Shown: positions 15,015 through 35,687 of the stretch, piece by piece
How positions within the stretch are numbered: position 1 is the first letter of the stretch
Layout: every line of letters begins with the position of its first letter
Notes under the pieces: generated by a model
What the model saw: the letters and a program-made list of their open reading frames with translations, nothing else
Database searches by the model: none
What the model was told of the DNA's origin: nothing
Position numbers and translations under genes: made by a program
From: Candidatus Latescibacterota bacterium
GTDB taxonomy: Bacteria; Latescibacterota; UBA2968; GCA-2709665
Length of the DNA: 64,000 bases
NCBI GenBank assembly: GCA_965237675.1
Contig: OZ250150.1
Location: 5,472,001-5,536,000 of the forward strand
Direction: 5' to 3'

Positions 15015-15051
15015 GTTTCAATCCTTGTTCTGGTGGAAGACGTTCGACGAT
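15015..15051 (-). repeat. solitary CRISPR-like repeat (family B)
   Basis: gtttcaatccttgttctggtggaagacgttcgacgat. Confidence 0.85.
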
Positions 15052-15227
15052 TCGGCCGCACGCTCAGCGTCGGCACGGGCCCACAGGGCCAATTTGGACA
15101 GGGTGGGGACAGGCAGGCAGGCCGCCTTGTAGTCAGCAGGTGAGAACGGCGTGCCGTCCTCGTGCCAGGCGGGGCCGTTAAAAGTGTCTGCCATCTTGTT
15201 GGGTTTGTTGGGCGTGTCGATAGTCAT
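15018..15227 (-). CDS. small WHxDGTPF-motif protein whose 3' end reads into the repeat
   Basis: WHEDGTPFSPADYKAACLPVPTLSKLALWARADAERAAE; GGAG RBS. Confidence 0.6.
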   Translation of the reverse strand: MTIDTPNKPNKMADTFNGPAWHEDGTPFSPADYKAACLPVPTLSKLALWARADAERAAESSNVFHQNKD

Positions 15228-15338: not shown

Positions 15339-15375
15339 GTTTCGATCCTTGTTCTGGTGGATCTACATTTGCGGG
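15339..15375 (-). repeat. solitary CRISPR-like repeat (family B)
   Basis: gtttcgatccttgttctggtggatctacatttgcggg. Confidence 0.75.
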
Positions 15376-15899: not shown

Positions 15900-15936
15900 G
15901 AGTAAATCGTTGTTCTGATGGAAGTTCTCATTGGGC
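15900..15936 (-). repeat. solitary CRISPR-like repeat (family B, degenerate)
   Basis: gagtaaatcgttgttctgatggaagttctc. Confidence 0.7.
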
Positions 15937-16174: not shown

Positions 16175-17929
16175 CTACGATGTTCCCCGGTCGCTCCGAT
16201 TCGTACTAAGCAGCCCTCGCAGCCTGTGATGCAGACGGTCGCGACGGGCTTCGTAGAACGCGTTGAACCCTGTGATTTCCGTTGGGATCTCACCCAAGTC
16301 ATTTCGAGAGACGAAATCGCTCGCCGCTTCGGAATCATAGGTATTAGCGATCCACTCGTGCGGCAACCTATCGCGCTTGCTTTCGTTGGCCTCCCCGGTG
16401 AGCAACTGCAGATTGGGGAGGCGGTTGACACGGTCGAGGTACTCCGGGATGTGGTCTTCAGCCACTCCGACCTGGCGTAGACGCCCACGCGTGAACCGGC
16501 TCTTCGGAAACACGTGATCGATATGGAACCTGTTGCTTTGCACATCCACGAAGGGGTATAAGACGGACAGTAGCGCGAACGTACGGTCCTTCGACTCCAC
16601 GAGATCCTCTATTTCTTCTTCCTCGAATGCCAGGCTCTTGCCGCGCACCCGCATCCCAGCTTCCAGTTTCGCCGACGGGAATGCCTCTGCGCCATGTGTA
16701 TCGATCAGGCTCCTGAGCGAGGTGAGCAGGGTGTCCAGACCGCTGCCCCAAATCCCTCGCTTGAGCAGTGATCGCAATAGCCAATCTCGGATATCATCTC
16801 GATCCTGGCGGTACAACGATTGAGACAAGAATCCCGTGGGTGTATCCTTGCAATACAGGTAGTGAGCAATGGGCAGAACTGCGTAGTTTGCGCTTAGACT
16901 GGCCTGGGAAAAACCAAACCTTGCCACCAATTCCACGGCTGTGCGTACTGCGCGCGTTATCGGGTCCCAGTTCTCTTCAAGGAGCTTCATGTTGTTCCGA
17001 TTGAAATTGGTCGCCCTGAAACGAACGTTCGCGACCCCTGCAAGCATAAGGCCTGCTTTGAGCAGGAAGTCCTGAGTGAACGCGAAGCCCGTCCCGATGC
17101 GGTTTATTTCGTCCACCGTGCCGTGTATTGCCTCGCGGGCATCCAGTTTCTCCCACTGTGCGGTGGCCATACTCATCAGCATGTCTGAATAGCTCAGCGT
17201 CGTACCACCACTGTTGGTACGGATAAAGATGTCAAGAACCTTGTCTATATTTTGGTCAGGTTCCTCGTAGTGCGCGATAACCGGATCCGTGTGCACAACC
17301 TTTTGTAGCTTCCCTAGGACGTTGCCTGGGCGGCGTTCATTGCCAAGTTGTCTGTTCACGAGAATTTCGTTGAGATCCTGCCACTCCTCAACCTGTAGGA
17401 TCTCGCCAACGGGGTACCAGCAGTGCGTTTCGTCCCGCCGTTCGGCCTCTTCGCTGGTCAGAAATCGAAAATCGTACTGCATGTTTTGCTCGTTCTCCTC
17501 CGCGTCCGCGAGAAGATTCAGGTATAGTTTCCGCTTTGGAAATGCGTCTGGGTTGTTCCACCATAGACGCGGCAGTTTGTAGGCGTAGGTACCCCGTAGC
17601 CCGATGTTCAAACCCGTTAGTCGTTGCTGGCCGTCGAGCACTGCGGTAACTTCATCTCGGGTGAGGGCTCCTATTGGATCGCAATGGGGGTTATCTCTCT
17701 CGTGATAGTTAAGCATTAAGTCGTAGAACTTGTACTTAGCGATGCTCTCTCGTTCGACGATCCAGAACAGGAACGACCCAATCGGGTACCCGCGCATCAG
17801 GCTGTCGAAGAGACATTGGATCTGTTCAGGCCGCCACACGAATTCCCGCTGAATCGCAGGAAGCACATACTGCCTACCTTCAATAGCCCCGAGGGCCTTG
17901 CTGATCGTGATAGGAGTCTGGAATCCCAT
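16175..17929 (-). CDS. GmrSD-like DUF262 + C-terminal HNH (DUF1524-like) restriction endonuclease
   Basis: LPAIQREFVW, LFDSLMRGYPIG, LDGQQRLT, FIRTNSGG, HIDHVFPK..NLQLL..N..K. Confidence 0.9.
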   Translation of the reverse strand: MGFQTPITISKALGAIEGRQYVLPAIQREFVWRPEQIQCLFDSLMRGYPIGSFLFWIVERESIAKYKFYDLMLNYHERDNPHCDPIGALTRDEVTAVLDGQQRLTGLNIGLRGTYAYKLPRLWWNNPDAFPKRKLYLNLLADAEENEQNMQYDFRFLTSEEAERRDETHCWYPVGEILQVEEWQDLNEILVNRQLGNERRPGNVLGKLQKVVHTDPVIAHYEEPDQNIDKVLDIFIRTNSGGTTLSYSDMLMSMATAQWEKLDAREAIHGTVDEINRIGTGFAFTQDFLLKAGLMLAGVANVRFRATNFNRNNMKLLEENWDPITRAVRTAVELVARFGFSQASLSANYAVLPIAHYLYCKDTPTGFLSQSLYRQDRDDIRDWLLRSLLKRGIWGSGLDTLLTSLRSLIDTHGAEAFPSAKLEAGMRVRGKSLAFEEEEIEDLVESKDRTFALLSVLYPFVDVQSNRFHIDHVFPKSRFTRGRLRQVGVAEDHIPEYLDRVNRLPNLQLLTGEANESKRDRLPHEWIANTYDSEAASDFVSRNDLGEIPTEITGFNAFYEARRDRLHHRLRGLLSTNRSDRGTS

Positions 17930-18641
17930 CAGTGAAAACCTCCTTCGAATCGGGTTTACAGCGGCGACAACGGAAAGTGCTAATACACGCACCACCGGTG
18001 GGTACGGGTGCGCCGTCTGGATTCTATGCCATGGACTTTGCGGCTAGGGCCAAAAGCCGGTACCGTGAGCGTTAATCTCCTTCTGGGCCTTGGCGGAGAC
18101 TCTGCGTCGCTTGTACGCGTTTCCTGGTAGCCTCGTAGACCTTCATTCGAAGAAAGCAAGGGGTGCCGAGATTGCTATGGTGCCCGATGTGCCACTGCCT
18201 GCGCCTATGCAGGAACCACATGAATGGATTGACTGTGACCGCCGAGCATTTCTGGGGGTATTCGCACACTCAGGGTTCGCGGTCCAAGTGTATGTTGCCG
18301 CGCAACAGGTGTGGGCTCAACATGCCGATGGACGCGTACGCAGTCGCTTGCACGGTACTGGGTACAGCGGTTGGTGGTACTTGTGGTCCGTCAATTCAGG
18401 GTCAAGATTGATGTTCCAGCGTGCCAGTCCAAAGATGCGCCCGAATAGGCTTTTGAGCCACCGGGTACAGAACGTGGTGCGATGCGAGAGTTGGTGCACC
18501 GCATCTATTGCACAAGTACCTCTCGGTAGATCCGCGACCGTTTCCGGTCCAACTTGACCGAGGTATAGGAGACAAATTCATTCGACTCGACAATATGACA
18601 ACGTGCAGAGCAAACGTCGCCTGATCGTCGGGTTCGTTCAC

Positions 18642-18670
18642 GTTTCGATTCCGGTTCCTGTGGAAAATGC
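18642..18670 (-). repeat. degenerate solitary CRISPR-like repeat (family B)
   Basis: gtttcgattccggttcctgtggaaaatgc, 20/29 matches to the consensus by eye. Confidence 0.45.
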
Positions 18671-18727
18671 ACTGCGGATTGTCGTGCGTACACAACGCAC
18701 CTCGGCCATTCGGTCTCTTGGCGCTGC

Positions 18728-19642
18728 TTAAGCAACCTCGAACAGGTAGCGCACCCACTTGTTTGCGACGTCGGAGATGCCATCCACGTCAATTACGAAT
18801 TCCTGCCCTGGGCCTTCCGAGGTGACATGGATCCACGGCGCGGCGCGCCGCCGCATTTTGACTTTACGCTTAAGGCGCCTGCAACCGTCGGCTGGCCAGA
18901 ACCATTCAGGCAGTCTCCAGTGTGAGCATCGGGATGATGCTCCCTTTTCAACTTCCTCCGGCTCGGTCAAGATGATACGGCAGTCTTCGTTCTGAAATAC
19001 GCCGCCTCCGGGTGCGTCGGTTCCAGCGATACTGAGCTTCGGAGTCGAAACGTAGACCGTGTTGTTCATCGGCCTCCGAGGATTGTCGCCCGGTTCCCGG
19101 AATGATCCGTTCAGATGTGGGTGGTCCGATAGCCACGGATACTTGCCCAGAGCGCGGTCGTAGTCCGCAACTGTATGAAGTGCCAAAACTTCATGTACCT
19201 GAAGCCAACCGAAAATCAGATGGACTCTCGGTGCGGTTCTGACGAAACACCAACCGCCGCTGCCATCTTCCTCGACCCGCCGGAACGTTCCGAAGAACAG
19301 GAAAAGGTCACCCTGACAGACGCCCTGATTGGCCAGGTGGGTTTGAGATTCATCTACCAGTCCGAATGCTGGCCGCCATCCGGATTGCCGTGGGATCGCT
19401 TCGTCTCGAAGGTCTGGATCCAGGTGGCACCAACAGTCTTGCCTAACTTTACTCAGGCACTCCACAATCGGCGCGAGCGAGCGACCAACCCACAGAACAT
19501 CGCTAAACCGTTTCGAAGATTGAGGATAACGCTGGGGCGTCGGAATAGGGAGGGAGAGGATTCTCCCGTCTGGGAAAATCGGGCTATGGCTCTTTCCAGT
19601 TTTCGAGTCGAATCCCTTGCGGCTGAGCACGATTCTCTTCAT
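18728..19642 (-). CDS. Nucleotide modification associated domain 3 (Nmad3) protein
   Basis: MKRIVLSRKGFDS..SPIFPDG..SLPIP, CHLDPDL, GDLFLFFG, GPGQEFV. Confidence 0.8.
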   Translation of the reverse strand: MKRIVLSRKGFDSKTGKSHSPIFPDGRILSLPIPTPQRYPQSSKRFSDVLWVGRSLAPIVECLSKVRQDCWCHLDPDLRDEAIPRQSGWRPAFGLVDESQTHLANQGVCQGDLFLFFGTFRRVEEDGSGGWCFVRTAPRVHLIFGWLQVHEVLALHTVADYDRALGKYPWLSDHPHLNGSFREPGDNPRRPMNNTVYVSTPKLSIAGTDAPGGGVFQNEDCRIILTEPEEVEKGASSRCSHWRLPEWFWPADGCRRLKRKVKMRRRAAPWIHVTSEGPGQEFVIDVDGISDVANKWVRYLFEVA

Positions 19643-19645
19643 CGG

Positions 19646-19682
19646 TAAAGTCCTCGTTGTTCTGATGGAAAATTCCCTGTCT
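19646..19682 (-). repeat. solitary CRISPR-like repeat (family B), 3' end remodelled into the Nmad3 RBS
   Basis: Core ttgttctgatggaaaattc (19657-19675); minus strand reads TTCCATCAGAACAACGAGGACTTTACCG-ATG. Confidence 0.7.
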
Positions 19683-19785: not shown

Positions 19786-20424
19786 CTAACGCATCTCCAA
19801 CCGTTCGCCGCGCCGAAGCAGCCCGAGGCTCTCGGCGATGCGCCGCTCCCGAGTTGCCTCGCGTTTGGCCGTCCCTATCCACGTGATGAACTGGCGCTGG
19901 TACGAAGGCGCCAGGGTGTTCCAAAAGGCTTGAGCATTGGGATCGGCTTCCAAGGCGGCTGAGAACGCGTGCGCCATCTCGAACCGAGCCGCCTCAGGCT
20001 TCCAACCCCAGGTTCCGCTACGCTTCGCTTCGTCGATCAGGCGCTGGCCGGCGGCCGTCATCTTGCCGGACGCGCGCAGCCGGTCGACGCGCTTACGGTT
20101 CGTTTCCGACCACCGGCTCCCCGGCCTTCTCGGCGTGAAGCGGTGCATGTAGCGCTCGTCGTCGATCCGCTGCTTCGTCCCGTCGATCCAGCCAAAACAC
20201 AGCGCTTCCTCGACCGCGTCGTTGTACGTCGCTGTCGGTTTGTCCACGTGTTTCTTGTAGAACACCACCCAGACCGCGTCGACGCGATCGTGGTTCGCGC
20301 ACAGCCAGCGTCGCCAACAGGACCGGCTTCTCGGGGTGAAGCGCCGCTCCGGCGTGGACCTCGCCGCCTGCCTCGACCTGCCGGGAAGGGAAACATCGAC
20401 TGCTTTCTTGTCCGAATCAGGCAT
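19786..20424 (-). CDS. YdeI/OmpD-associated family protein
   Basis: AVEEALCFGWIDG, FTPRRPGSRWSETN, AKREATRERRI. Confidence 0.9.
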   Translation of the reverse strand: MPDSDKKAVDVSLPGRSRQAARSTPERRFTPRSRSCWRRWLCANHDRVDAVWVVFYKKHVDKPTATYNDAVEEALCFGWIDGTKQRIDDERYMHRFTPRRPGSRWSETNRKRVDRLRASGKMTAAGQRLIDEAKRSGTWGWKPEAARFEMAHAFSAALEADPNAQAFWNTLAPSYQRQFITWIGTAKREATRERRIAESLGLLRRGERLEMR

Positions 20425-20941
20425 GAGGATCTCCGTTATTCCCATTTGGAAGCGCAACGCTACAGGCACGCGAAGGCCAGCGCGGTAAAGCCACGACCGA
20501 TCGACAGCTGTATGGCGCCGGGATGCCCCACGTATCTGGGCGTCGCTTCAACTCGCTCAGCAACCCCACTGGGCACCAATTCCACCTCTTTGAACTCGAA
20601 CAGTTACACATTGCTGTTGAAGCGTACCGCCATGTCCGGACGACCCGGGTGGCGCAGAAACCCTTTTCACGTCAGCTTACGGAGCCCGTGGACGACATTG
20701 AACGCCGACGGTATATCCGGTAACTGGTCTACCCGCTCCCCAGGGCGTGCCCGGGGAAAATCGCCCGAACCTGCGAGAATCGGTTCAGTAGTGGCACCGC
20801 TGATCGGCGCTGCCCATATCGGTATTAACTATTGGGGCTTGAAACAGATGGACAAAGCTGCAAACATCCGTAGCCTCCACGTCGATGCGTCTCGAAAAAA
20901 CGTAAGCCCCTGCTCACTGGTGAAGACATGGCCTGCCGTGG

Positions 20942-21190
20942 TTAGAAAATGCCTCCGCCGAGCGCAAGGCGTATGATGCCAAAAAACAGCGCCACAATGC
21001 AGCATACTAAGCCCGCGATACCGCAGCTCTTGGAGTTGCTGCCCGCCGTAACCAGCGCGATGCCGCAGACGATGACGCCCAAGCCTGCAAAAGGGATATT
21101 GAGCCAGTTTAGCGAGCCGAGACAAGGAAAAAAGCCCACCACCATTCCAACAATAGCCAGAATTCCCCAAAGCAAACTAAGCACCCGCAT
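20942..21190 (-). CDS. small membrane protein
   Basis: 82 aa, three hydrophobic segments, GGAGG RBS. Confidence 0.75.
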   Translation of the reverse strand: MRVLSLLWGILAIVGMVVGFFPCLGSLNWLNIPFAGLGVIVCGIALVTAGSNSKSCGIAGLVCCIVALFFGIIRLALGGGIF

Positions 21191-21194
21191 GATG

Positions 21195-21512
21195 TTACCT
21201 CCTTTTGTGCATCCGGCGCATCATGAAAACGGCGACCACTAGCTGATTGGCGAGCAAAGCTCCAAGAATGGCGACCGACCCTCGATTGTAGATAAGAGCT
21301 GCCGAGAAGTCGCCACGTGCAGTGGCCGCGAATGCGCGCGTCATGCCGCACAAAGCGCAGGTTTCCCCGTTGCGATGCGGCACCTTAAGAGCCTCGCTCG
21401 TGGAAAAAAGCGTTTCCTCCGGCACAAGGTAGGGCAAGATCAATATGAAAAGCAGCACAGTTGACGCCACCAACCACGCCGCCAAAAGGGTCCTCCTGGC
21501 ATAGCGGTCCAT
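21195..21512 (-). CDS. DUF2752-like membrane protein
   Basis: CALCGMTRAF motif. Confidence 0.7.
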   Translation of the reverse strand: MDRYARRTLLAAWLVASTVLLFILILPYLVPEETLFSTSEALKVPHRNGETCALCGMTRAFAATARGDFSAALIYNRGSVAILGALLANQLVVAVFMMRRMHKRR

Positions 21513-21543
21513 TGCGTCGGCTCCGTCGTGAAATACGAGGATT

Positions 21544-21580
21544 GTTTCAATCCTTGTTCTGATGGAAGATTCCCGACGGT
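21544..21580 (-). repeat. solitary CRISPR-like repeat (family B, best-conserved copy)
   Basis: Minus strand ACCGTCGGGAATCTTCCATCAGAACAAGGATTGAAAC, 37 nt, ATTGAAAC end. Confidence 0.9.
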
Positions 21581-21661
21581 GTGTGGAGCGCACGCGAGGC
21601 ACTGCTGTTCTGTGGGGTGCGTCTCATGTACGGTTAAGGCGCGGGGACGCACTATCCGCGG

Positions 21662-22744
21662 TCATGCCAGGTTGGCGACGCGGCGTTCGGCGGCGGCGAT
21701 GTCGGCGGCGCCGTCGAGCACGGTGATCTCCAGGTGGAACTCGCGTGTGGCGCCGGGTTCCAGGTACTCCAGGAAGTCGTGCCTGCGGTTCCAGGCGCGC
21801 CCGAGGGGCGAGCAGTTGCCCGGCTCCACGCCGGTCACGTAGCCGGCGGCGGCGAAGTGCTGCCACTGGGTGACCAGCGGCAGCTCGGCAGCCGGCATGC
21901 GCCACTGCAGGCCGTACGCAAGCCGGTCGTTGATCAACGCAACGGTCACGTTGCCGTTGGCGTCCGGTACCGGCCGGTGCACGTAGACGTCGTCGCCGGC
22001 GCCCGGCTCCGGGGCGCGCGCCCGCTCGTACTCCGCGGCATCGACCGGGCGGTCCTGCAGCCACTCGGTGCTGAACTGGCTGTTGACCACGAACCGGGTA
22101 CCCTCGTCGAGCAGCGGGAAGCCGGGATTGGTGTGGTACAGCAGCATCAACGGCGAGCGCAACCCGCCTAGGTTCTCCACTCGGTCGTGGATGCTGATGC
22201 GGCGCTCGCCCAGCGTAGTGGTGATTTCGCGGCGTAGCTCGAGGGTGGTGCCAAGTGCCACCGCTTCGCGCATGGTGCCGGCGATGCGCAGGCGGTATTG
22301 GTCTCCCTGCCAGCTTCCGCCGGCGCTCACGTCGCGCGCCGGGATGGCGGACAGCCGCCCGTGCAGGCCCAGCTCCTCGCCTTCCTCCTCCGGGTCGGTT
22401 TCGGGATGGCCGACGAAGGTCAGGCCGCAACTGATGAGCAGGCCGCCGAAGAAACTGCGCATCCAGCCGTAACCGCCGGGCTCGAAGAATGCCGGGCCGA
22501 CGTCACCGGTGGCGCTGCGGAAACACAGCGACCGCCCCCGGTAGGTGGCGGCAGCGATGTCGAGCGCCCGTCCGGGCAGCACCGAGAAGCTCAGTCCGGA
22601 GGCGTTGCTCACCTCGATCAATCCGGCGCCGCGCTCGTTGCCCTCGGTCAGCTCGGCGCGGCGAACGGCGGCGAGCTGGCTCATATCGCCGACCAACCGC
22701 AGCAGCTCCGCCTTCGTGTAGTCACGTCCAAACAGATGCGCCAT
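21662..22744 (-). CDS. DUF4432 / aldose 1-epimerase-like protein
   Basis: PGRALDI, GLLISCGL, GLHGR, MLLYHTNPGFPLL, YVTGVEP. Confidence 0.9.
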   Translation of the reverse strand: MAHLFGRDYTKAELLRLVGDMSQLAAVRRAELTEGNERGAGLIEVSNASGLSFSVLPGRALDIAAATYRGRSLCFRSATGDVGPAFFEPGGYGWMRSFFGGLLISCGLTFVGHPETDPEEEGEELGLHGRLSAIPARDVSAGGSWQGDQYRLRIAGTMREAVALGTTLELRREITTTLGERRISIHDRVENLGGLRSPLMLLYHTNPGFPLLDEGTRFVVNSQFSTEWLQDRPVDAAEYERARAPEPGAGDDVYVHRPVPDANGNVTVALINDRLAYGLQWRMPAAELPLVTQWQHFAAAGYVTGVEPGNCSPLGRAWNRRHDFLEYLEPGATREFHLEITVLDGAADIAAAERRVANLA

Positions 22745-22856
22745 GCTCGCTCTCTCCTCTCGTGGACGGGCGGCGCCCGGTCAGCGGTCGTGCCAGCGGG
22801 TGTTGCTGCCGGTGCCGCCGGTGAGGCCGATCACCCGCCCCATGATCGCCGCGCCG

Positions 22857-23002
22857 TTACGCCGGGTGCCTCGCCGGGGCAACGTGAGCGCGGCCGATCT
22901 GTCCTACCGAGGTACAGCCGATGAGCGCCATGGTGCGGCTCATCTCCTCGGCCAGCAGGCTTACCGCGTAGTCGACCCCCGCTTCGCCGCCGTTGCCAGA
23001 CT
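22857..23002 (-). pseudogene. C-terminal fragment of an FMN-dependent alpha-hydroxy acid dehydrogenase
   Basis: GGEAGVDYAVSLLAEEMSRTMALIGCTSVGQI begins immediately after the last CRISPR repeat. Confidence 0.8.
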
Positions 23003-25672
23003 GTTTCAATCCGCTCCCCCCACCGAAGTGAGGGGAGATGTCATCTCGGGCGCGTGCGCGAAGTCCTTCCACGAGTTTCAATCCGCTCCCCCCACCGAAG
23101 TGAGGGGAGATATTCAGGATGTTTCCGCGTCTATCGTTCCGTCTCCGGTTTCAATCCGCTCCCCCCACCGAAGTGAGGGGAGATATGGACGAAGAAGTCA
23201 TACACTACGACTCCCGGATAGGTTTCAATCCGCTCCCCCCACCGAAGTGAGGGGAGATTTTTATGATGGACTGGATAGACGCCGAAAGAAACAGTTTCAA
23301 TCCGCTCCCCCCACCGAAGTGAGGGGAGATCTGTATCCGTGCGCCTCATCGCCCTCGACCTCTCACAAGTTTCAATCCGCTCCCCCCACCGAAGTGAGGG
23401 GAGATCAGCGCGGGTATGCCTTCCTCGCGCACGACATCCAAAGTTTCAATCCGCTCCCCCCACCGAAGTGAGGGGAGATGAATCTGACGGGTATCGTACC
23501 CGCCGTCCCACTCGAGTTTCAATCCGCTCCCCCCACCGAAGTGAGGGGAGATCCTTCGCGTATGACGAGGGCCTTGATCCTTTCATGAGACAGTTTCAAT
23601 CCGCTCCCCCCACCGAAGTGAGGGGAGATCGCTTGCTCGGTGGCTGAGAGTTGCGATACTTACGTGTTTCAATCCGCTCCCCCCACCGAAGTGAGGGGAG
23701 ATCTCCCAGGCGGCACAATGGCGGTTAGTGGGAACCAGGTTTCAATCCGCTCCCCCCACCGAAGTGAGGGGAGATCGCCGGGCGGCGACCTGTGGGAAGC
23801 GTCGGGGATGGTCGTTTCAATCCGCTCCCCCCACCGAAGTGAGGGGAGATGCCGTGGGCGTTTTCATTCCGGGAAAGGCTGACATGTTTCAATCCGCTCC
23901 CCCCACCGAAGTGAGGGGAGATCAGGGGCCGCTTGCCGGGGTTACCATCAAGGATCCGCGTTTCAATCCGCTCCCCCCACCGAAGTGAGGGGAGATCTCT
24001 GTCGGGCATGGCGAAAAGAACCAACAAAAGCAAGTTTCAATCCGCTCCCCCCACCGAAGTGAGGGGAGATATCCTTATCTCGCGCCGGCACTGTTGGGTA
24101 CGACGAGTTTCAATCCGCTCCCCCCACCGAAGTGAGGGGAGATTTAAACCGGGGCCACAATACAGGAGGGTAAATAATGGTTTCAATCCGCTCCCCCCAC
24201 CGAAGTGAGGGGAGATGTCGGCCGGAATTCTTGCCGAACACGATAGCGCAGTTTCAATCCGCTCCCCCCACCGAAGTGAGGGGAGATTAATGCCTGATTT
24301 TACTGGCGAACAAAAGAAAAAGTTTCAATCCGCTCCCCCCACCGAAGTGAGGGGAGATGGGCGCACAGATCGCCTCTGAGCGTTCCTTTTGTGGTTTCAA
24401 TCCGCTCCCCCCACCGAAGTGAGGGGAGATTCCTGTCTTCATCCGTGAATACATATCCTTCAGGCATGTTTCAATCCGCTCCCCCCACCGAAGTGAGGGG
24501 AGATCTACGATGCGGTATCGGATGTCGGTGCCTGCAATGTTTCAATCCGCTCCCCCCACCGAAGTGAGGGGAGATAGACAGCGGGTGGGCATTGACGACT
24601 GACGCGATAGGTTTCAATCCGCTCCCCCCACCGAAGTGAGGGGAGATTTGTCTGCCGGACGCGGCGCAATGCCGTCGCCATAAGTTTCAATCCGCTCCCC
24701 CCACCGAAGTGAGGGGAGATCCCGAAATGCAAGGGTGGTGGGACAAGTGCACTCAGGACGTTTCAATCCGCTCCCCCCACCGAAGTGAGGGGAGATGCGC
24801 GATGACGCCAAGACAAAAGTCATTCACAATGTTTCAATCCGCTCCCCCCACCGAAGTGAGGGGAGATTCGTAACCGTGCACGAACTGCTCAAAAGCGTCG
24901 ATGGTTTCAATCCGCTCCCCCCACCGAAGTGAGGGGAGATCCACGCCCCGCGCGGGTTCGCGCAACTCGTAGGAATGTTTCAATCCGCTCCCCCCACCGA
25001 AGTGAGGGGAGATTGCCTGTCTCCTCTTGAATCAGTGACGCGCTCAGGTTTCAATCCGCTCCCCCCACCGAAGTGAGGGGAGATTCATTTTCGTGCCTAC
25101 CTGCACAGCGAAAGACACGGTGTTTCAATCCGCTCCCCCCACCGAAGTGAGGGGAGATTCCCCGACCCCTCCCCTCCCACGGCCGTTCCTCCACGTTTCA
25201 ATCCGCTCCCCCCACCGAAGTGAGGGGAGATCAGGTTGCTCGACAAGGCCGTCCCAGGGGCTACGTGTTTCAATCCGCTCCCCCCACCGAAGTGAGGGGA
25301 GATGTGTCGCCTGTGGCCCTGGGGGTTTTGACCCGTACAGGTTTCAATCCGCTCCCCCCACCGAAGTGAGGGGAGATCCGTGGTGTCCTGGGCCTTGCCC
25401 TGGGTCTATACTGGTTTCAATCCGCTCCCCCCACCGAAGTGAGGGGAGATGTGCCGTCGCGGGCGTACGTCACCTCGGAACCAAAGGTTTCAATCCGCTC
25501 CCCCCACCGAAGTGAGGGGAGATCCAGGGGCGTCCGTGGGAGAGGCGGGTGGTGGGTCCGGGTTTCAATCCGCTCCCCCCACCGAAGTGAGGGGAGATGT
25601 ACGTGGTCGCGGCGGCTTACGCCGCGCTGGGTACGGTTTCAATCCGCTCCCCCCACCGAAGTGAGGGGAGAT
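23003..25672 (-). CRISPR. type I-C CRISPR array, 37 repeats / 36 spacers
   Basis: 37-nt repeat ATCTCCCCTCACTTCGGTGGGGGGAGCGGATTGAAAC (minus strand), period about 73 nt, counted by eye. Confidence 0.98.
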
Positions 25673-25852: not shown

Positions 25853-26140
25853 CTATAAAACCAGCGGACCCGATAGGTCCACGGGTTTACTGATACCGTG
25901 ATGCTCTGTCTCCTTTCCGGTGTCTTCGTCCAGGTGATAGATTCGAAGGGAGTCTTGCTCATGATCGATTTCCTTTAACAAACGATTTCGGAGCACGGCC
26001 CATTCCGTTTTTCCGACCTTACATTCAAACAGCGACTTTTGTACTCGTACGCCGAAATCCTCACAGGCTCTTGCGACGCGCCGCAGTCGCTTTTGTCCAG
26101 CCCGGTCAATCGTCGAGACGTCGTACGCGATCAGTTTCAA
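25853..26140 (-). CDS. cas2: CRISPR-associated endonuclease Cas2
   Basis: IAYDVST..RLRRVARACEDFGVRVQKSLFEC..DSLRIY; probable TTG start. Confidence 0.95.
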   Translation of the reverse strand: MKLIAYDVSTIDRAGQKRLRRVARACEDFGVRVQKSLFECKVGKTEWAVLRNRLLKEIDHEQDSLRIYHLDEDTGKETEHHGISKPVDLSGPLVL

Positions 26141-26170
26141 TCCGCTCTCCTGCAATAGAACAGGTGAAAT
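26134..26170 (-). repeat. 37-nt array-repeat mimic over the cas2 RBS/start
   Basis: ATTTCACCTGTTCTATTGCAGGAGAGCGGATTGAAAC; 16/17 match at the 3' end, 7/9 at the 5' end. Confidence 0.75.
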
Positions 26171-26176
26171 CCTACT

Positions 26177-27238
26177 TCATTTGGGTATGTACGGGATATA
26201 GTCGGGAATATCGCCACGGAGCTTTCGCGCCAGCAACCTGGCTTGAATGCTGAACACCTGCCCTAAACGGATATTTTCCTTGAACAGCGCGTGCTTTACC
26301 TCGGTTTGCTTCCGGCGTTGCCAGGCCTGGATAACCTCTTTCCTGCCCCGGTCGGTAAACTCCACTGCGCCGCCTTCGCGCTCGAGGAAGTGTCCAGGTT
26401 CAATCTGGCGACGATTGATCAGGGTCAATGCCAGCCGCTCAGCCAAACAGGGTCGGAACTCTTCCATCAGATCCAGCGCACAAGCCGGCCTACCAGCCCT
26501 TGTGGCATGGAGCCAGCCGACGTACGGGTCCAGCCCAGCGGTCGTCAACGCGGCCAAACAGTCGTGCCGCACCAGTGCGTAGATGAAGGAAAGCAGGCAG
26601 TTTACCCGGTCACGGGGCGGACGCCGCGAGCGCGTAATAAATCTGAAGTCTTCCCGCTGTTGTTTAAGCATGTACTGGAAGGCCGAGAAATATTTCCTGG
26701 CGCCCAGACCTTCCATACCCCTGATCGGATCGAGTGCCTCCCGAAGCCCGCAATTCGTTGCAACGGGTGGAGCATTGCCGAGTTGATCGATCAGCCGGGC
26801 TAATTCATCTGCGGCACCCACCAACTCCCTGCGGTCCGAATCCGTCTCGGCTTCGCGGCCGGACCGCAATAGATTGGAACGCGAATTCTGCAGCTTTCCG
26901 GCGACGAACTGCCGGGCAATGCGAGCAGCAACCTCCGGGCTGTCCGCCGCCGCGTATTGAGCCCGGCGGAGCAGATACCGGGTGTCTCCGCTTCCCAGAA
27001 CCTGCGCCAGCAGATGTCCGTTCTCGGTATGGTAATGGACGGCAACCTGATGCTGCCAGCACAGGGACATTGCAGGTGGCGTAACCACGACCCGACCGAA
27101 CGCGCAGATACTTTCCAGGTGATGAATCGGCACGGTCAATCGTGTTTGTTTTTCGATTTCGACCCGGAGCGTCAAATGATCCCTGTGGACAACAGTGCCC
27201 GGAGTCGTCAGATACAGGGTGTTCTGGATGATAGCCAT
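26177..27238 (-). CDS. cas1: type I-C Cas1
   Basis: NTLYLTT, RGMEG..A..YF, RSRRPPRDRVNCLLSF, ALDLMEEFR. Confidence 0.97.
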   Translation of the reverse strand: MAIIQNTLYLTTPGTVVHRDHLTLRVEIEKQTRLTVPIHHLESICAFGRVVVTPPAMSLCWQHQVAVHYHTENGHLLAQVLGSGDTRYLLRRAQYAAADSPEVAARIARQFVAGKLQNSRSNLLRSGREAETDSDRRELVGAADELARLIDQLGNAPPVATNCGLREALDPIRGMEGLGARKYFSAFQYMLKQQREDFRFITRSRRPPRDRVNCLLSFIYALVRHDCLAALTTAGLDPYVGWLHATRAGRPACALDLMEEFRPCLAERLALTLINRRQIEPGHFLEREGGAVEFTDRGRKEVIQAWQRRKQTEVKHALFKENIRLGQVFSIQARLLARKLRGDIPDYIPYIPK

Positions 27239-27281
27239 AACAGGTCCGTAAGCCAGGTTTGGCCTGTGGAACCAGGCAAAT

Positions 27282-27983
27282 TTAGTCTGAGGTGTCGAAC
27301 ACCTCCCGGCCGGCTTGAAGAAGGATGGGCGGAGCGCTGGTTATTTCGGGAAGGCAGTAATGAAAAAGCGAGCACTCCGAACATTGTGGCTTATGGACGG
27401 CTTGGGGGACCACTTCCTCTTCGATAAGCCGATGCACGGCTTCGATGGCGTGTTCTGTGAGTCGGCGCAGATCGCCGTCAAACTCAACTTCTCGCCGGCG
27501 CCTGCTCGTGGCGTGGTAGATAGCCCCTCGGGGAATCTCCAATTCGAACATTTCTTCGAGGCACAACGCTTGTGCGCAAAGCTGGGCGTCATCGTTGTCG
27601 AACTTGCGGCGTTTGCCCTTCTTATATTCAACTGGATAGACGCTTTCGACATTATCCGGCAAATATCGGGTTTTTTTTCGCTTAGAAGAACGTTTGAGTT
27701 TCACCTCAACAATATCGCATTTTCCAGAGAGCCCCAGCCTTTGGGACCATACCGGCAATGCCCGAAGCACTTCTGTATGTGCCGCCTTCTCGTACCCTGG
27801 TACATCGGCCTGCTCGTGAAATTGACTGCCGATTAGCGTGTGCTCGTTTTCGGTGAAAGTACCCTCGACATGGATCAAGCCCGCCCGCCGAGGGCAATAG
27901 AGGTACTGGTTGATAGCGGAGAGCGGAATGATCCGCTCTCCGCTATCGTACGGGTGGATCGGCTGGAAAACGGATTCATTCAT
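27282..27983 (-). CDS. cas4: Cas4
   Basis: YCPRR, GKCDIVE, PVEYKKG, QLCAQALCLEEM, CSECSL..C. Confidence 0.95.
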   Translation of the reverse strand: MNESVFQPIHPYDSGERIIPLSAINQYLYCPRRAGLIHVEGTFTENEHTLIGSQFHEQADVPGYEKAAHTEVLRALPVWSQRLGLSGKCDIVEVKLKRSSKRKKTRYLPDNVESVYPVEYKKGKRRKFDNDDAQLCAQALCLEEMFELEIPRGAIYHATSRRRREVEFDGDLRRLTEHAIEAVHRLIEEEVVPQAVHKPQCSECSLFHYCLPEITSAPPILLQAGREVFDTSD

Positions 27984-28929
27984 GACGCCTATTTAAGCAA
28001 ATGCCGGCGGGCAGATCGACACTGTCCCATCCGCAGCCAACCTCATAATCGGCGAAGGATTGCGGGAATTCCACGCTGTCCTTCAGTTTTACCTCTATTC
28101 CCTCAAAAAGCTTGTGGGCATGGGCACAGCCGAGGCGGGCTTCGCGTTTTTTTTGTTCGGCATTATTTTCATGTTGGGTGCCAACGTGCTCAAAGTCGTA
28201 AATCCCTCGCACCACCATTTCACCGCGAGCAGCGGAGCGGTCATGCTCGAACATCTGGTTGAGCGCATCGAAGAGGACATCGAGGTCGGCGTTAGTGAAC
28301 CCGGTGCGTTCGGCAAAAGCAGGCGAGACGTAAACCTTGGCGGCGAAGAGGGCATAGGGTACGATGTGCTTATTGCCCATGGTGCGTTCCTTGTCTGCGT
28401 CCTCCTCTTTTGTGACGGCACCGCGAGTAATGGAGATCTCCAGTGGCGTGATAGGATGGTACGACTGGCCAAAGGTGAACTGCACCGGACCGCGCACCTG
28501 ACCCCAAGCGGAGCCTTTCATGATGCTTTCCCCTACGCCGAGTACACCGCCGAACGCACGCACATCAAAGAACTCACGGCACAGCCATTTCATGGCAGCT
28601 TCTTGCTTCTCGTTCTTGGAAGCACCCGAGTCCAAACTCTCGGCACTTTTCTCAACGCCATTGTCGATCTCGTTATTGATTATGGCACCCTGCCTTATCA
28701 ACAGATTATAGCCGTTGGCATCATCTTCAGCCCGTTCGGGCGAGAACATTTCAACGAAGTTGCGCACCTTACGCTTGAGGCACACGTCGGAGACGAGACC
28801 CCGATTGGTGTTGTGATCTTGACGCGGCATGTTACCAGCATCGGGATCGCCATTGGGATTTCCGTTGGTGACCTCGAAGAGCAGCAAAACGTCGTGCCGA
28901 TTGGTGAGAATATCGTTGTTTCGATTCAT
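27976..28929 (-). CDS. cas7: Cas7/Csd2
   Basis: NGNPNGDPDAGNMPR, SDVCLKRKVRN, FDVRAFG, GQVRGPVQ, FEHDRSAARG. Confidence 0.97.
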   Translation of the reverse strand: MNRNNDILTNRHDVLLLFEVTNGNPNGDPDAGNMPRQDHNTNRGLVSDVCLKRKVRNFVEMFSPERAEDDANGYNLLIRQGAIINNEIDNGVEKSAESLDSGASKNEKQEAAMKWLCREFFDVRAFGGVLGVGESIMKGSAWGQVRGPVQFTFGQSYHPITPLEISITRGAVTKEEDADKERTMGNKHIVPYALFAAKVYVSPAFAERTGFTNADLDVLFDALNQMFEHDRSAARGEMVVRGIYDFEHVGTQHENNAEQKKREARLGCAHAHKLFEGIEVKLKDSVEFPQSFADYEVGCGWDSVDLPAGICLNRRHE

Positions 28930-28954
28930 TGATGAATTCCTTTCTGTGAAAGAT

Positions 28955-30802
28955 TTATTGGTTGCTTTCCTTTTTTTCTTGTGCTGCCTCGCGGGCGACG
29001 CGGTCGGCGGCTTTTTGCTGGTAAAAACCGAGGGCGAAACGCCCCTGCGCGTGCAAATCCAACGTACGGGGGAATGGGTAGATTTTGGTTGACACTTCTT
29101 GAATAGCCTCGTCCAAGAAGCGGTCATGTCCTTTGTACTTATCGGACTTGCGGATATTGTTGAGATGGTGGCGGTTGAGCTTGAGGAGGACCGGAAACAC
29201 CGAGGCTGGCGAGGCCATGGCAGTACCAAAATAACGCTCGGCGACTCCGGCTCCTTCGAGCTGATAATCATGTGCCTTGGCTTGGGCCTCGGTGAGCACA
29301 GCGAGCAACCGTCCGCATTGATAGGCGGCATCTTCCGCCTTTGCGTCCTGTTGTTCAGTAATTTCCATGGTGTTTCCCTTTCGGTTTCGATTGAGAACGA
29401 GCTTTGCCAAGGCTAACCGGGAATGGTTCAACAATGCCGTGCTTCCATCGCGTGCCATATCAACGCGCAGGCGGTTCAACAGGGGATGCAAAAGAGCAAG
29501 TGAGGGCGCGGTCCCTTCCAGCGCGGCGCGAAATAACTGAGCGGTCACTTCCGTCTGCAAATCTTTTGCGTCGCGTACTGTAGTGCAAGCCAGTCGGAAC
29601 AGGGCTAATGGCGGCATCTTTTCTTTGCCAGTGGGCAGGCGCACCGGCTCCAGATCGAGATCGCGGAACCAGCGCCGCAGATTTTCCGTGGCGGTTTCCA
29701 GCGTCGTTTGCATCCAGTGGCGCACAACGATGCGGCCACTATTGCCCGCGAGAGTGACGGCATGGAACTGCTCCTGCCGCATTGCATCGCGTTCCTGTCC
29801 GACCCACGGGGACTTCAAAAAATGCGCCACTGCCATGGGATCGGCTTGGTTGAGTAAAACACCCCAATCGCTGGTGGCGTCCGTTTCATTCCGAGTCCAA
29901 AAACAGCATGATGCCTGCCCTAAGCGGATGGAATGATCTTTGCGGCCAAGCATCGCGTTGAGCGCGGTGCAATAGGCGGTGGCCGCCCGGGTGGAGGTGG
30001 AAGCATTTAGACTTTGCTCAAAACCGTAGGAGGCGAAGGCATCCTTATCAAACGAGACAATCGACGCGCCGAAGGCTTGGGTGTTGGGCACGCCTTGGAC
30101 TTTGGGGTTGTGGGTCATCGCAATAGGCTGATCGCTCTCCCCGGTGACCAAACAGAGTCCGTGGGGCGCATCCGCCTCGTGGTCTTCATTTTCCTTCTCG
30201 AATTGATTCCGCCAAAAGGGCCGGATGTGAATTTCATCCTCCAGAAGCAATTGCTCCTCCACGCGGAATGAAAAGTTGTCCGGCCCTAGTTTAACCTCTC
30301 CGCCATCGGCTTTGGTGATCCACCAAGCAGGTTTCTCCTTGGGCTTGGCGTCAGAACTGATACCCCAGCGCATAAAGGACAGCATCTGTCCCGGTTCGGG
30401 CTTGAACGCCAACAGGGTCTTGAGCGTCAGACTGAGTGTGTGCTCCTGCGCCTTTTCAATCTGCGCCCAAAAGTCATTGTACTTACGCAAATTGTTCTCA
30501 TTACGGTCCTTCCGCTTCTTTTCGGACATAGGTTGTTCCGGGTTCGCGTCAAATCCGAACACGGCCGTAATGCCATCCGCCATGAACTCGGCCACCCCGC
30601 CAGCCACCTTGGGCCGAGTTGTCTTTGGACAATCGAACTCCTTGCCTCGGTTCCTTTCCCCCTCGGTTTCCACCGGCCCTTGGCCCACGAGATTGCCCAT
30701 CGTGTCCAAAGTAACGATCCATCGCACTGCCTTTGGTTTGAAAGCTAGGTTATTCAGCAGTTTTCGAGATTTCGCGAAATCGTTCAAATGTTGCAGCAGC
30801 AT
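28955..30802 (-). CDS. cas8c: Cas8c/Csd1
   Basis: CLVTG, IVSFDKDAFASYG, NSGRIVVR, AYQCGRLLA, QGRFALGFYQQ. Confidence 0.95.
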   Translation of the reverse strand: MLLQHLNDFAKSRKLLNNLAFKPKAVRWIVTLDTMGNLVGQGPVETEGERNRGKEFDCPKTTRPKVAGGVAEFMADGITAVFGFDANPEQPMSEKKRKDRNENNLRKYNDFWAQIEKAQEHTLSLTLKTLLAFKPEPGQMLSFMRWGISSDAKPKEKPAWWITKADGGEVKLGPDNFSFRVEEQLLLEDEIHIRPFWRNQFEKENEDHEADAPHGLCLVTGESDQPIAMTHNPKVQGVPNTQAFGASIVSFDKDAFASYGFEQSLNASTSTRAATAYCTALNAMLGRKDHSIRLGQASCCFWTRNETDATSDWGVLLNQADPMAVAHFLKSPWVGQERDAMRQEQFHAVTLAGNSGRIVVRHWMQTTLETATENLRRWFRDLDLEPVRLPTGKEKMPPLALFRLACTTVRDAKDLQTEVTAQLFRAALEGTAPSLALLHPLLNRLRVDMARDGSTALLNHSRLALAKLVLNRNRKGNTMEITEQQDAKAEDAAYQCGRLLAVLTEAQAKAHDYQLEGAGVAERYFGTAMASPASVFPVLLKLNRHHLNNIRKSDKYKGHDRFLDEAIQEVSTKIYPFPRTLDLHAQGRFALGFYQQKAADRVAREAAQEKKESNQ

Positions 30803-30804
30803 TA

Positions 30805-31602
30805 TCAAATCCCTTTTGGTTCGAGAATTTCAACTTCGTCGGGATGACAAACCAAGGTGGAATCCTTCATCTTGGCGCGGAAGAAACAGGCTTCGGGTCG
30901 AGCCAATTCGCCGACAAAACGTGCGGTATTCTTCTTGGGTCCCAGTTCATCGGGGCGTTTCCAGCGAAAGCCCTGAGCACGTGCCGTGGGCGGAAAAACA
31001 TCATAGAGCATCAAGCCCAAGTCCTCCACGGGCTGTCGCCAACTGATGCCCAGCTCAGTAGCTCGCCCTTCCAGCGCGGCCTGGGGATCATCAACCCACT
31101 CGAAATCCGCCGCGAATTCACGCATACCCAAGGCGGGCCGGTGGAAGCACTTGCCCTGCTGAGCGCGGCGCTTGAACTCGACGAAATACTTCACCGGTGT
31201 GTCGTTCGGGCGATTCGCCAACGGTGTGGTACGCAGTTCGGCACTGATGATGTATTCCACCTCTTGGAGAGCCAACATATTGCGCTGAGTGCCGTCAGGT
31301 GCGCCGCCCCCAGCCTCAATGGGCGATACCTTCTCCGGCTGAGCCATCCATTGGCCGACATTGCGCAGGCTGATGACTGACTGCACTTCATTGCGCCGAA
31401 TCGAGGCCCAGCGTCCTCGCCGAACCACCCGGACGACAGCGACGCAATAACAAACTTGAGGTTCCCAAAACACGGCTTCCAAAATGCCACGTGCGGCAGA
31501 GGGCGTCATCACCGAATAGCTGACGCGCTCCACTTTCATTTCGGGGCGAGTGAAACAAGCCCAATCGCCCCATACTCTGAGATGTACATGATTGTTTTTC
31601 AT
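30805..31602 (-). CDS. cas5: Cas5c (Cas5d)
   Basis: VWGDWACFTRPEMKVERVSYSVMTPSAARGILEA. Confidence 0.97.
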   Translation of the reverse strand: MKNNHVHLRVWGDWACFTRPEMKVERVSYSVMTPSAARGILEAVFWEPQVCYCVAVVRVVRRGRWASIRRNEVQSVISLRNVGQWMAQPEKVSPIEAGGGAPDGTQRNMLALQEVEYIISAELRTTPLANRPNDTPVKYFVEFKRRAQQGKCFHRPALGMREFAADFEWVDDPQAALEGRATELGISWRQPVEDLGLMLYDVFPPTARAQGFRWKRPDELGPKKNTARFVGELARPEACFFRAKMKDSTLVCHPDEVEILEPKGI

Positions 31603-31640
31603 GTTTCAATCCATTCCTCATACTGATGGAAAGGGGAAAC
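31603..31640 (-). repeat. repeat mimic directly abutting the cas5 ATG
   Basis: GTTTCCCCTTTCCATCAGTATGAGGAATGGATTGAAAC-ATG. Confidence 0.7.
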
Positions 31641-31682
31641 CTTCCTGCGGTGTGCGGATGCTAAACACAATTCGACCTCGCT

Positions 31683-31866
31683 TCATAACAAGAAATCCTC
31701 GGTCGGACGTTGGTCGATAACTACGCCGAGATGTTCGTGATAGGCTGCTTCATCCAGTACGCTCAACTCCATACCGGGCAACACCGGACGAAGCAGTCCC
31801 ATTTTATCAGCTTTCTGAAAGTCGCGCAAATGAAGATTCACCATAAAACGTTGGAGGTCGCGCAAA
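31683..31866 (-). pseudogene. cas3: Cas3 C-terminal fragment separated by IS256
   Basis: LRDLQRFMVNL... rejoins in frame with ...RKDLR when the IS and one TSD are removed. Confidence 0.85.
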
Positions 31867-35368: not shown

Positions 35369-35489
35369 GGTTGACCATCCAAGAGTATGCCAAATTCACG
35401 ATGCCAATGAGGGCGTCAGACACTTTTTCTTTTCTTCACATCTACCAGCCTGCCTTCAACAGAACGGCCGGCAGCCGCTTCATTTCTTC

Positions 35490-35614: not shown

Positions 35615-35658
35615 TTTGCTTTTCCTTAGGGGTTTGGGTCCGTCCCTACGGTACGCAT

Positions 35659-35687
35659 ATTATAGTGAAATTTTGTGCACTACGCAA
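35659..35687 (-). promoter_or_regulatory. sigma70 promoter upstream of cas3
   Basis: TTGCGT-17-TATAAT; related copy at 39538-39565 with 16-nt spacing. Confidence 0.7.

Follow-up and report, generated by a model that had tools for sequence, protein, structure and literature searches.

Introduction

Spacers of at least 100 nucleotides (nt) have been reported from clustered regularly interspaced short palindromic repeat (CRISPR) arrays of E. coli, P. aeruginosa and S. thermophilus and the majority of them resemble transposons and are treated as insertions (PMC4524480). A second related phenomenon is that of solitary repeat units and CRISPR RNA (crRNA)-like RNAs that regulate neighbouring genes, including defence genes, beside type I-C loci, for which TTC is the protospacer-adjacent motif (PAM) (10.1101/2024.12.27.630466). 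Here we describe an insert of 1,424 base pairs (bp), at positions 21579-23002 of a 64-kb stretch of DNA from a Candidatus Latescibacterota bacterium, which lies between CRISPR repeats of two different families. This stretch, hereafter the window, covers the 5.6-Mb genome that carries it (G000) in part, and all coordinates are those of the window unless a locus is named. The insert is foreign DNA with a Spirochaetia-type donor, and on balance we consider it probable that it is an old, horizontally acquired and selected gene cassette in a decayed CRISPR trailer, which entered by illegitimate joining and is expressed by read-through.

As in the published long spacers, two array repeats are here set apart by much more DNA than a spacer holds. 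The insert differs from those cases in having neither a transposase nor terminal inverted repeats, in carrying a selected, metabolic-type gene from across a phylum boundary and in its flush leader-side end. Both kinds occur in this genus, as the type I-B array of the relative G003 has gaps of 1.6 and 5.5 kb that hold insertion sequence (IS) genes on mixed strands. The resemblance to the CRISIS and CreTA systems consists in single CRISPR-like repeats beside non-cas genes, some of them defence genes, near a type I-C locus. Here, however, no PAM-flanked match between a pseudo-spacer and a promoter was seen, the solo repeats belong to another subtype (I-B) whose effectors are absent, and at least nine of them stand in one orientation, like the wreck of an array.

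Integron cassette arrays consist mostly of single promoterless genes in one orientation, bounded by repeats, with a possible common promoter and an order that varies between relatives. The likeness of the present locus to them is one of architecture only, namely a row of single genes between repeats: its boundaries are CRISPR repeats and not attC hairpins, this cassette, at least, goes back to a random piece with several genes and was trimmed afterwards, and the integron-type tyrosine recombinase family (PF00589) has five matches in G000 and none in the window, the nearest being ~103 kb off. Casposons integrate long DNA by means of a Cas1-family enzyme with target duplication. A likeness to them would hold only if the insert were an oversize spacer (see below), with a Cas1-family enzyme inserting kb-sized DNA and the repeat as the duplicated target; the insert is devoid of terminal inverted repeats, polB and Cas1. 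Word searches of the literature found no account of non-transposon genes bounded by CRISPR repeats, though the supplementary tables of PMC4524480 and 10.1101/2024.12.27.630466 may hold cases. The insert is best grouped with the long inserts known from CRISPR arrays, as a cassette of cross-phylum origin that is kept by selection in a decayed type I-B trailer and secondarily abuts a type I-C array.

A Spirochaetia-type fragment between two CRISPR repeats

The insert is bounded by a solo family-B repeat (21544-21578) on one side and by the trailer repeat (23003-23039) of a type I-C array, array A, on the other. Its GC content is 69.8% against 58% for the genome, a value that only 3 of 7,870 equally long genome windows reach; it runs at 0.69-0.705 over 21600-22999 and at 0.54-0.62 on the flanks. 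A preliminary description of this DNA had singled out the GC-rich stretch, the well-preserved family-B repeat at its end, a 5'-truncated alpha-hydroxy acid dehydrogenase set against a non-degenerate trailer repeat and a full DUF4432 gene, and all of these are borne out. The stretch ends 1 nt from the B repeat, which is identical to the B copies of two relatives, and the trailer repeat is a perfect copy of the 37 identical repeats of array A. The dehydrogenase, dependent on flavin mononucleotide (FMN), survives as a 47-residue C-terminal fragment whose frame (23000-22860) begins after two spare bases and matches positions 312-349 of the 350 in Pfam FMN_dh (E 2.5e-8). The DUF4432 gene is complete (profile positions 2-304 of 304; 303.8 bits against a gathering score of 32.5) and has a GGAG-type ribosome-binding site at 22745-22761.

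Searches with the DUF4432 protein against species-representative genomes recovered 12 loci. Copies of 93-98% identity come from records titled Candidatus Latescibacterota, which overlap the genomes of the same genus, and copies of 84-93% identity from four Spirochaetia or Spirochaetales records (L006-L009). In the Spirochaetia locus L006 (GC 70%) an lldD-like FMN dehydrogenase, coaE, a cupin gene and DUF4432 (named by NCBIfam) stand in a row, and downstream of them lies an oppositely oriented transporter-like open reading frame (ORF), putatively of MFS type. The insert matches this locus in three separate pieces: the dehydrogenase end (22997-22809 against L006 4810-4998) and the DUF4432 region (22757-21667), both at 92% nucleotide identity, and a scrap (21643-21595) that matches the inside of the transporter gene at 78%. 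The same scrap matches L007-L009, and in the four Spirochaetia loci the MFS-type gene in question lies 0.3-3.2 kb downstream of DUF4432. A scar within the insert runs straight from the start of coaE (~12 codons) into the end of the cupin gene (~7 codons). Taken together, the three separated matches and the coaE'/cupin' scar indicate that ~950 bp and ~320 bp were lost from a donor-type fragment of at least 2.7 kb.

The tetranucleotide profile of the insert correlates with the L006 and L007 flanks at r values of 0.94 and 0.94, versus 0.77 with the host, and 400 windows drawn at random from the host included none with an equal resemblance to the L006 flanks. A maximum-likelihood tree unites the cassette copies and L006 with 100/100 support, and the remaining Spirochaetia sequences surround this clade. 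The operon match, the nested gene tree and the composition accordingly uphold the earlier suggestion that a chromosomal piece of another organism is present. Four public sequencing runs were examined as short contigs, two of them RNA runs labelled sponge metagenome. In one run (X1) contigs diverge from the window at 22992 and run on as a full-length dehydrogenase, which indicates that donor-like organisms share the sample. Along with the tetranucleotide profile and the tree, this settles which way the transfer went.

Two other origins were tried and rejected. A transposon does not fit, since the only genes of the insert are the FMN_dh fragment and DUF4432, with no transposase, and end-to-end (terminal) inverted repeats are lacking. 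Nor is a resident gene split: tblastn with the L006 dehydrogenase matches only a 39-amino-acid (aa) fragment in the 5.6-Mb genome, so that the remainder of the gene, which the preliminary description had named as a thing to look for beyond the cas locus, is absent from the whole genome. A plasmid or phage origin finds no support: the plasmid collection gave only chance-size matches (46-61 nt, in three records) and the phage collection gave none. Rfam returned no family at gathering score over 5000-27000.

Age, erosion and selection of the cassette

At an identity of at least 90% the 1,424-bp query is present in five of the 15 genomes of the genus (G000, G003, G007, G008 and G012) and has no match in the other ten; G008 carries two copies of the piece, and G012 one full and one partial copy. 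Among other genera of the family, five of seven genomes show only matches of 64-70%, at a different position in G015, where positions were compared. The synonymous divergence (dS) of DUF4432 is 0.079-0.214 between the window and the other copies (0.112 to G012, 0.079 and 0.087 to G008, 0.214 to G003), 0.05-0.27 over all pairs of copies and 0.233 to L006, while that of the host flanks is 0.067-0.095 to G012, 0.133-0.168 to G008 and 0.398 to G003. The age of the cassette is thus of the same order as the species splits.

DUF4432 is intact in all seven copies, with ratios of nonsynonymous to synonymous divergence (dN/dS) of 0.063-0.183 over 21 pairs and a third-codon-position GC content of 0.83-0.89; purifying selection keeps this gene. 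The dehydrogenase scrap has been eroded to 48 nt in the first G008 copy, to ~36 nt in the second and to nothing in G003 and G007. In these last two genomes DUF4432 directly follows a repeat of the type found at 18642, which in the window precedes another gene.

Repeat families and junctions

The reverse complement of the array A repeat ends ATTGAAAC / GGATTGAAAC, and the array sits downstream of cas2; the 3' end GGATTGAAAC on the minus strand places the leader on the 25.7-kb side, which makes 23003-23039 the trailer repeat. A genome-wide repeat search found no copy of this repeat elsewhere in G000. Family B, allowing up to three mismatches, is present in nine of 61 related genomes, G000 included, and forms regular arrays in two of them (37 copies in G003, 33 in G006); that of G003 adjoins cas6b, cas8b, cas7, cas5, cas3, cas1 and cas4. 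These regular arrays and the adjoining cas6b and cas8b mark B as a genuine type I-B repeat. In G000 its copies are confined to the window region, point in one orientation and lie 0.2-7.6 kb apart, and a search of the genome for cas6b and cas8b found neither; they are the orphaned wreck of a type I-B array. The A and B repeats are identical in their first 10 nt, GTTTCAATCC, with which the repeat closes when read in crRNA sense. Neither viral contigs nor metagenome contigs of the JGI contain an exact match to the B repeat. Outside the CRISPR region of G000 a single exact 14-nt B core was seen (G000:C1:4510917), with GTTTC before it and the rest of the repeat missing.

Six copies of the piece have a repeat directly upstream in the crRNA sense, and in four of them, two in G012 and two in G008, donor-like sequence runs from the very first base. 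In both genomes this upstream repeat is a B variant and the donor-like sequence follows right after GGATTGAAAC. At the upstream junction of the contig L003 the first base differs; in the window, where the upstream repeat is of family A, five extra bases and two changes intervene, and the 10-nt stretch so formed is possibly the tail of a lost spacer. At the downstream end, ~16 unassigned bases and an identical B repeat are common to the window, G012 copy 1, L003 and G008 copy 1, which make up all but one of the five full-length copies; these bases may be donor sequence that has diverged or what is left of a former spacer. In the second G008 copy and in the copies of G003 and G007 the homology ends ~25 nt past the stop codon, and the partial G012 copy is cut inside DUF4432. 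B repeats are found on both sides of the piece in two relatives from the genus, G012 among them, and in L003.

The arrangement in G012 explains the contact with array A. There the order is the piece, a B repeat, a 189-nt small-ORF cassette, the type I-C array and the type I-C cas genes. The window is without exactly this B repeat and the 189 nt, and the deletion ends at, or at most 10 nt from, the starts of the shared GTTTCAATCC. The A-repeat junction of the window is therefore the product of a secondary deletion. This overturns the picture of a piece freshly joined to the terminal type I-C repeat as a new spacer, as the piece is old, present in five of the 15 genus genomes, internally eroded and flanked by B repeats in relatives. 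The broader idea of a spacer-like position survives in part: the piece does lie between two CRISPR repeats and starts flush in four of six copies, while the type I-C junction seen here is secondary. By the measures of a canonical spacer, the insert is bounded in the window by repeats of two families, A (I-C) and B (I-B), and is 1,424 nt long against 34-40 nt. The preliminary description had further proposed to locate the donor operon and a PAM at the breakpoint; the operon was found whole in L006, where the breakpoint is preceded by TTG and not by the type I-C PAM TTC, with L006 being the closest relative and not the true donor.

Further observations concern G012 (95% complete) and L003. G012 has a B-variant array of 76 repeats, reaching from L023:16457 to L024:2055, yet no Cas6b was detected in this genome. 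The leader-side repeat of this array abuts a second, truncated DUF4432 copy at window position ~22162, and the array is bracketed by a direct duplication of ~1 kb (L024:2056-2866 and L023:14816-16456) comprising the end of the piece, the B repeat and the small-ORF cassette. L003 is a 2,667-nt contig titled Candidatus Tectimicrobiota with the order B repeat, piece, B repeat and 95-97% identity to the window and G012 copies; it looks like a contig of the window genus misbinned into the metagenome-assembled genome of another phylum.

Expression of DUF4432

The donor-type operon leaves 14 nt between the cupin gene and DUF4432, and in relatives 40-60 nt separate the repeat from the start codon. Since these gaps leave DUF4432 too little space for its own promoter and the gene runs in the direction of the array, transcripts that start at the array or cas promoter most likely read through into it, and the co-transcription with the pre-crRNA envisaged earlier is plausible from this gene layout. 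RNA-library contigs of a relative at 95-97% identity cover 21543-22893, and one of them crosses from DUF4432 over the B repeat. The RNA run X18 has no cover at 20900-21508 or 22901-23074, and cover in the RNA run X22 is sparse.

Mode of entry and alternative explanations

The reading that we favour may be set out as follows. A Spirochaetia-type operon fragment of at least ~2.7 kb would have entered the ancestral type I-B array of the genus with its leader-side end exactly at a repeat edge, this first insertion probably being an illegitimate (microhomology) joining and not an integration by Cas1-Cas2. Under selection that keeps only DUF4432, the fragment would then have eroded by deletions of ~950 bp and ~320 bp here and by more in the relatives, and recombination at or near the repeats may have moved the cassette into several contexts. 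G000 would have lost the type I-B cas genes, with the type I-C module and its own array sitting upstream, and a later deletion of the B repeat and the 189-nt small-ORF cassette would have left no more than 10 nt between a perfect type I-C repeat and the piece. DUF4432 would be transcribed by read-through.

A number of points weigh against this reading. With regard to the joining itself, the hexamer GGATTG right before the breakpoint in L006 (L006:4801-4812) equals a hexamer in the repeat end GGATTGAAAC (window 23003-23012) at an offset of 4 nt. The chance of such a match is estimated at ~0.002, judged after the fact; the match could be either chance or the trace of a joining mechanism, and because of the 4-nt offset simple microhomology joining fails to reproduce the observed junction. 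The exact repeat-edge junction is better predicted by Cas1-Cas2 than by random insertion into a 36-40-nt spacer, and G012 has a second exact-edge junction, where a repeat of its B-variant array (B') abuts the interior of DUF4432. With regard to descent, the order inside the clade of the cassette copies and L006 is not separated, which leaves undecided whether the recipient copies stand apart from L006. The cassette dS is about half that of the host flanks for G008 and G003 and the cassette is missing in 10 of the 15 genus genomes, a combination that makes spread between species, instead of pure vertical descent, possible. With regard to expression, the promoter and terminator scan gave counts equal to those of shuffles (2 vs 2.0 and 9 vs 8.0) and is uninformative, so that its lack of minus-strand terminator-like sites between 23003 and 21662 comes from a scan that did no better than shuffles. 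The RNA-library contigs of the relative fit read-through and could equally be DNA carry-over, and none of the contigs in the RNA runs links array A to the piece. Finally, the right junction (23002/23003) has depth in its bin, yet no bridging contig among those listed.

The strongest competitor, which we regard as unlikely though to be taken seriously, is an oversize spacer: the Cas1-Cas2 of an ancestral type I-B or I-C system (with Cas4) would have joined the 3' ends of a kb-sized fragment to both repeat edges, in the manner in which it handles prespacers of 35-40 bp, yielding repeat, 2.7 kb, repeat; what followed would be the same as in the favoured reading. This would directly account for the donor-like sequence from the first base after the repeat in four of six copies, for the second exact-edge junction in G012 and for the B repeats on both sides in G012 and L003, where the far end adds no more than 16 bases of unassigned origin. 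It would also accommodate the fact that many inter-repeat stretches of relatives consist of exactly one gene, that small ORFs start 3-5 nt after a repeat and end only a few nt from the following one, and that in G011 two perfect solo type I-C repeats enclose a 1,613-nt single-ORF stretch. No Cas1-Cas2 is known to integrate kb-sized DNA in vivo, casposases being the only known case, and no literature search was aimed at this point. Moreover, the Cas1, Cas2 and Cas4 encoded here are of ordinary size and domain make-up, the L006 breakpoint lacks the type I-C PAM (the type I-B PAM of the genus being a separate matter), and the piece sits at the trailer end, whereas integration normally takes place at the leader end.

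Spacer-guided capture is an improbable route. It supposes that two neighbouring spacers of the old array, acquired for instance by primed adaptation, matched donor sites ~2.7 kb apart and that donor DNA recombined with both, replacing what lay between them. Flush junctions would then arise without any new enzymology, donor-like organisms are present in the same sample, and recombination at homologous CRISPR arrays has been discussed (PMC4524480). A comparison of 317 spacers from 12 loci with L006-L009, L011, L012 and G000, which covered 13-kb pieces of the Spirochaetia genomes and not whole genomes, found no match beyond six chance-level ones of 17-21 nt, all of them in G000. At 36-40 nt homologous recombination reaches its lower length limit, the region in the donor belongs to a chromosome, which is not a usual target of CRISPR, and TTC is wanting at the leader-side site.

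More improbable still is a regulatory role of the solitary repeats, in which these would be crRNA-like RNA genes of the CreTA/CRISIS kind, with pseudo-spacers that guide Cascade to repress defence genes and the insert as regulated cargo. Genes of defence type do occur between the repeats (the GmrSD-like candidate HEC-05, E 1e-223, and the NucS-like PDC-S11 of a relative), and in published type I-C cases a solitary repeat directly follows the regulated genes (10.1101/2024.12.27.630466). The pseudo-spacers of 10 solo repeats, however, reached at best a seed match of 12/14 in the window (three of them), none with a TTC PAM; B belongs to type I-B, whose Cascade and Cas6b are missing from G000; and DUF4432 itself has no PADLOC match.

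In the reads, the left junction (21578/21579) is covered with no differences by independent contigs of two public runs, a 370-nt contig in X1 (record 3, spanning 21330-21699) and records 19 and 20 of X2 jointly. One X2 contig joins 21566 to 23146, its shorter side being only 21 nt, and was discounted as a repeat artefact; another reads A repeat, 37 nt, B repeat, the layout carried by G012-like strains of that sample. An assembly chimera, in which reads of a co-resident GC-rich Spirochaete were misjoined into the host contig at CRISPR repeats, is hardly credible: donor-like sequence is indeed found in the same runs, repeats are classic points of misassembly and the right junction is without a listed bridging contig, but in the separate assemblies G008, G012, G003, G007 and L003 the piece recurs with these junctions on the leader side and at the B repeat and with deletions seen in none of the Spirochaetia loci, the X1 contig spans the left junction and the depth of the junction bins matches that of the host contigs.

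The type I-C locus and the wider trailer zone

The coordinates of the features are collected in Table 1. The repeats of array A have a start-to-start spacing of 71-77 nt, and the array is adjoined by cas3, cas5c, cas8c, cas7, cas4, cas1 and cas2, all seven recognised by Pfam, which identifies a type I-C locus. The genes cas3 and cas5c are separated by an IS256-like element that encodes a Mutator-family transposase. As G000 contains five more copies of this element with 99.9-100% identity, the insertion is a recent one, and it may split the operon. In G011 the terminal type I-C repeats are degenerate, which is the usual state.

Table 1. Features of the insert, its surroundings and the small-ORF family (window positions unless a locus is given).
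Feature	Positions	Strand	Remarks
16 nt of unassigned origin	21579-21594	minus	beside the B repeat
MFS-gene scrap, 49 nt	21595-21643	minus	74-78% identity to L006-L009
DUF4432 gene (PF14486), aldose-1-epimerase-like superfamily	21662-22744	minus	360 aa; Pfam E 1.2e-90
Deletion scar, coaE'/cupin' fusion	22781-22843	minus	20 codons; junction near 22809-22816
5'-truncated FMN-dependent alpha-hydroxy-acid dehydrogenase	22857-23000	minus	last 47 codons and stop
10-nt junction stretch	22993-23002	minus	compared with relatives by junction alignments
Solo family-B (type I-B) repeat	21544-21578	minus	35 nt; identical to the copy following the same piece in G008 and G012
Degenerate B-like repeat	19645-19680	minus	2 nt upstream of the Nmad3 start (19642)
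Degenerate B-like repeat	18642-18676	minus	
Three B or B-like repeats	15015-15049, 15339-15373, 15900-15934	minus	small-ORF cassette between them (ORF 15018-15227)
Three degenerate B repeats	6772-6806, 7199-7233, 7428-7462	minus	107-aa ORF and frameshifted copy of the small ORF between them
CRISPR array A (type I-C)	23003-25672	minus	37 identical 37-nt repeats, 34-40-nt spacers; leader side at 25673
Type I-C cas operon	25853-37482	minus	Pfam matches
cas2	25853-26155	minus	Pfam
cas1	26177-27238	minus	Pfam
cas4	27282-27983	minus	Pfam
cas7 (Csd2)	within 27976-29331	minus	Pfam
cas8c (Csd1)	28955-30808	minus	Pfam
cas5c	30805-31602	minus	Pfam
IS256-like element	31867-33291		transposase 31904-33193; Pfam
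cas3	33269-35368	minus	Pfam
WYL regulator	36373-37482	minus	Pfam
Small-ORF copy	15018-15227	minus	
Small-ORF copy	7234-7427		frameshifted
Small-ORF copy	L024:2869-3036		
Small-ORF copy	L025:2708-2896		
Small-ORF copies	L028:9548-9739, 9782-9958, 10592-10768, 10811-11014		

In eight loci of the same genus the region downstream of the active array holds degenerate B repeats and some solo A repeats, 0.1-7 kb apart, with genes between them. In the window the Pfam-supported genes other than IS genes (DUF4432, DUF2752, OmdA/YdeI, Nmad3, GmrSD-like and an Ig-repeat protein) are all six in the crRNA sense, and one IS4-like transposase between B repeats is antisense; in the relatives two EEP-family nucleases, a NucS-like protein (PDC-S11) and DUF4126 are sense in four of four tested. 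Some of the window genes deserve individual mention. The GmrSD-like protein (16175-17995, minus) matches the PADLOC candidate HEC-05 and lies between degenerate B repeats, as does the Nmad3-domain protein (18728-19642, minus), the start codon of which is 2 nt from a B-like copy. The OmdA/YdeI gene (19786-20469, minus), between B-like repeats, coincides with a local GC peak of 0.66 and is possibly another foreign cassette.

Inter-repeat stretches of 184-290 nt are filled by a family of 55-70-aa proteins with the motif W-H-x-D-G-T-P ... Y ... L-P-V-P-T ... W-A, of which there are 14 copies in seven loci, several of them frameshifted. The start codon often comes 3-5 nt behind a repeat, and the stop codon falls at the edge of the following repeat or within it. 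The family has 39 database protein matches, none with a Pfam domain; 16 pattern matches in a search for viral relatives yielded none that was confirmed, and the ESM Atlas gave no usable match to the small ORF.

Blocks of homology between genomes often begin a few bases from a repeat, e.g. at 21543, 15014, 7796 and 18629, which fits recombination at or near repeats. A mechanical count of ORF strands over those 42 of 48 inter-repeat stretches that measure 100-3500 nt, grouped into 23 homology clusters, gave 11 sense, 3 antisense and 9 ambiguous, against 151, 183 and 266 for 600 random genome pieces; it is a weak measure because the antisense strand of 70%-GC DNA also holds long open frames. On contig C12 of G011 (L028:11080-12766), the two perfect solo type I-C repeats mentioned above flank 1,613 nt with one 307-aa ORF of no known family. 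That region is set among degenerate B repeats, and composites of B, 26 nt and A and of A, 8 nt and B recur nearby.

Significance

Long inserts in arrays are known mostly as transposons. Here the insert is a non-mobile gene from another phylum, flush with a repeat, under selection and placed in a trailer zone in which most stretches between repeats hold a single gene, oriented as the array is read. A bolder reading, to which we attach little credence, is that the CRISPR locus of this genus acts as a platform for gene capture and expression. An activity at repeat edges, most simply Cas1-Cas2-Cas4, would insert kb-sized DNA, deletion would trim it to one gene, the repeats would shuffle the genes, co-transcription with the pre-crRNA would express them and Cas6b or Cas5c would cut out single-gene mRNAs. 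If true, this would be an integron-like system made from CRISPR parts, with the DUF4432 piece as a half-trimmed cassette and the small-ORF family as a resident.

If a Cas enzyme inserted the DNA, the view of the range of the adaptation machinery would change, and a natural precedent would be at hand for the Cas6-type processing of operon mRNAs. If only decay and recombination were at work, the locus would still document clearly that a gene has crossed from one phylum to another among organisms of the same samples, and it would show that for accessory and defence genes a CRISPR trailer can be both a sink and a hot spot of recombination. In either case, the several species that carry the same cassette at different stages of erosion offer a ready test bed.

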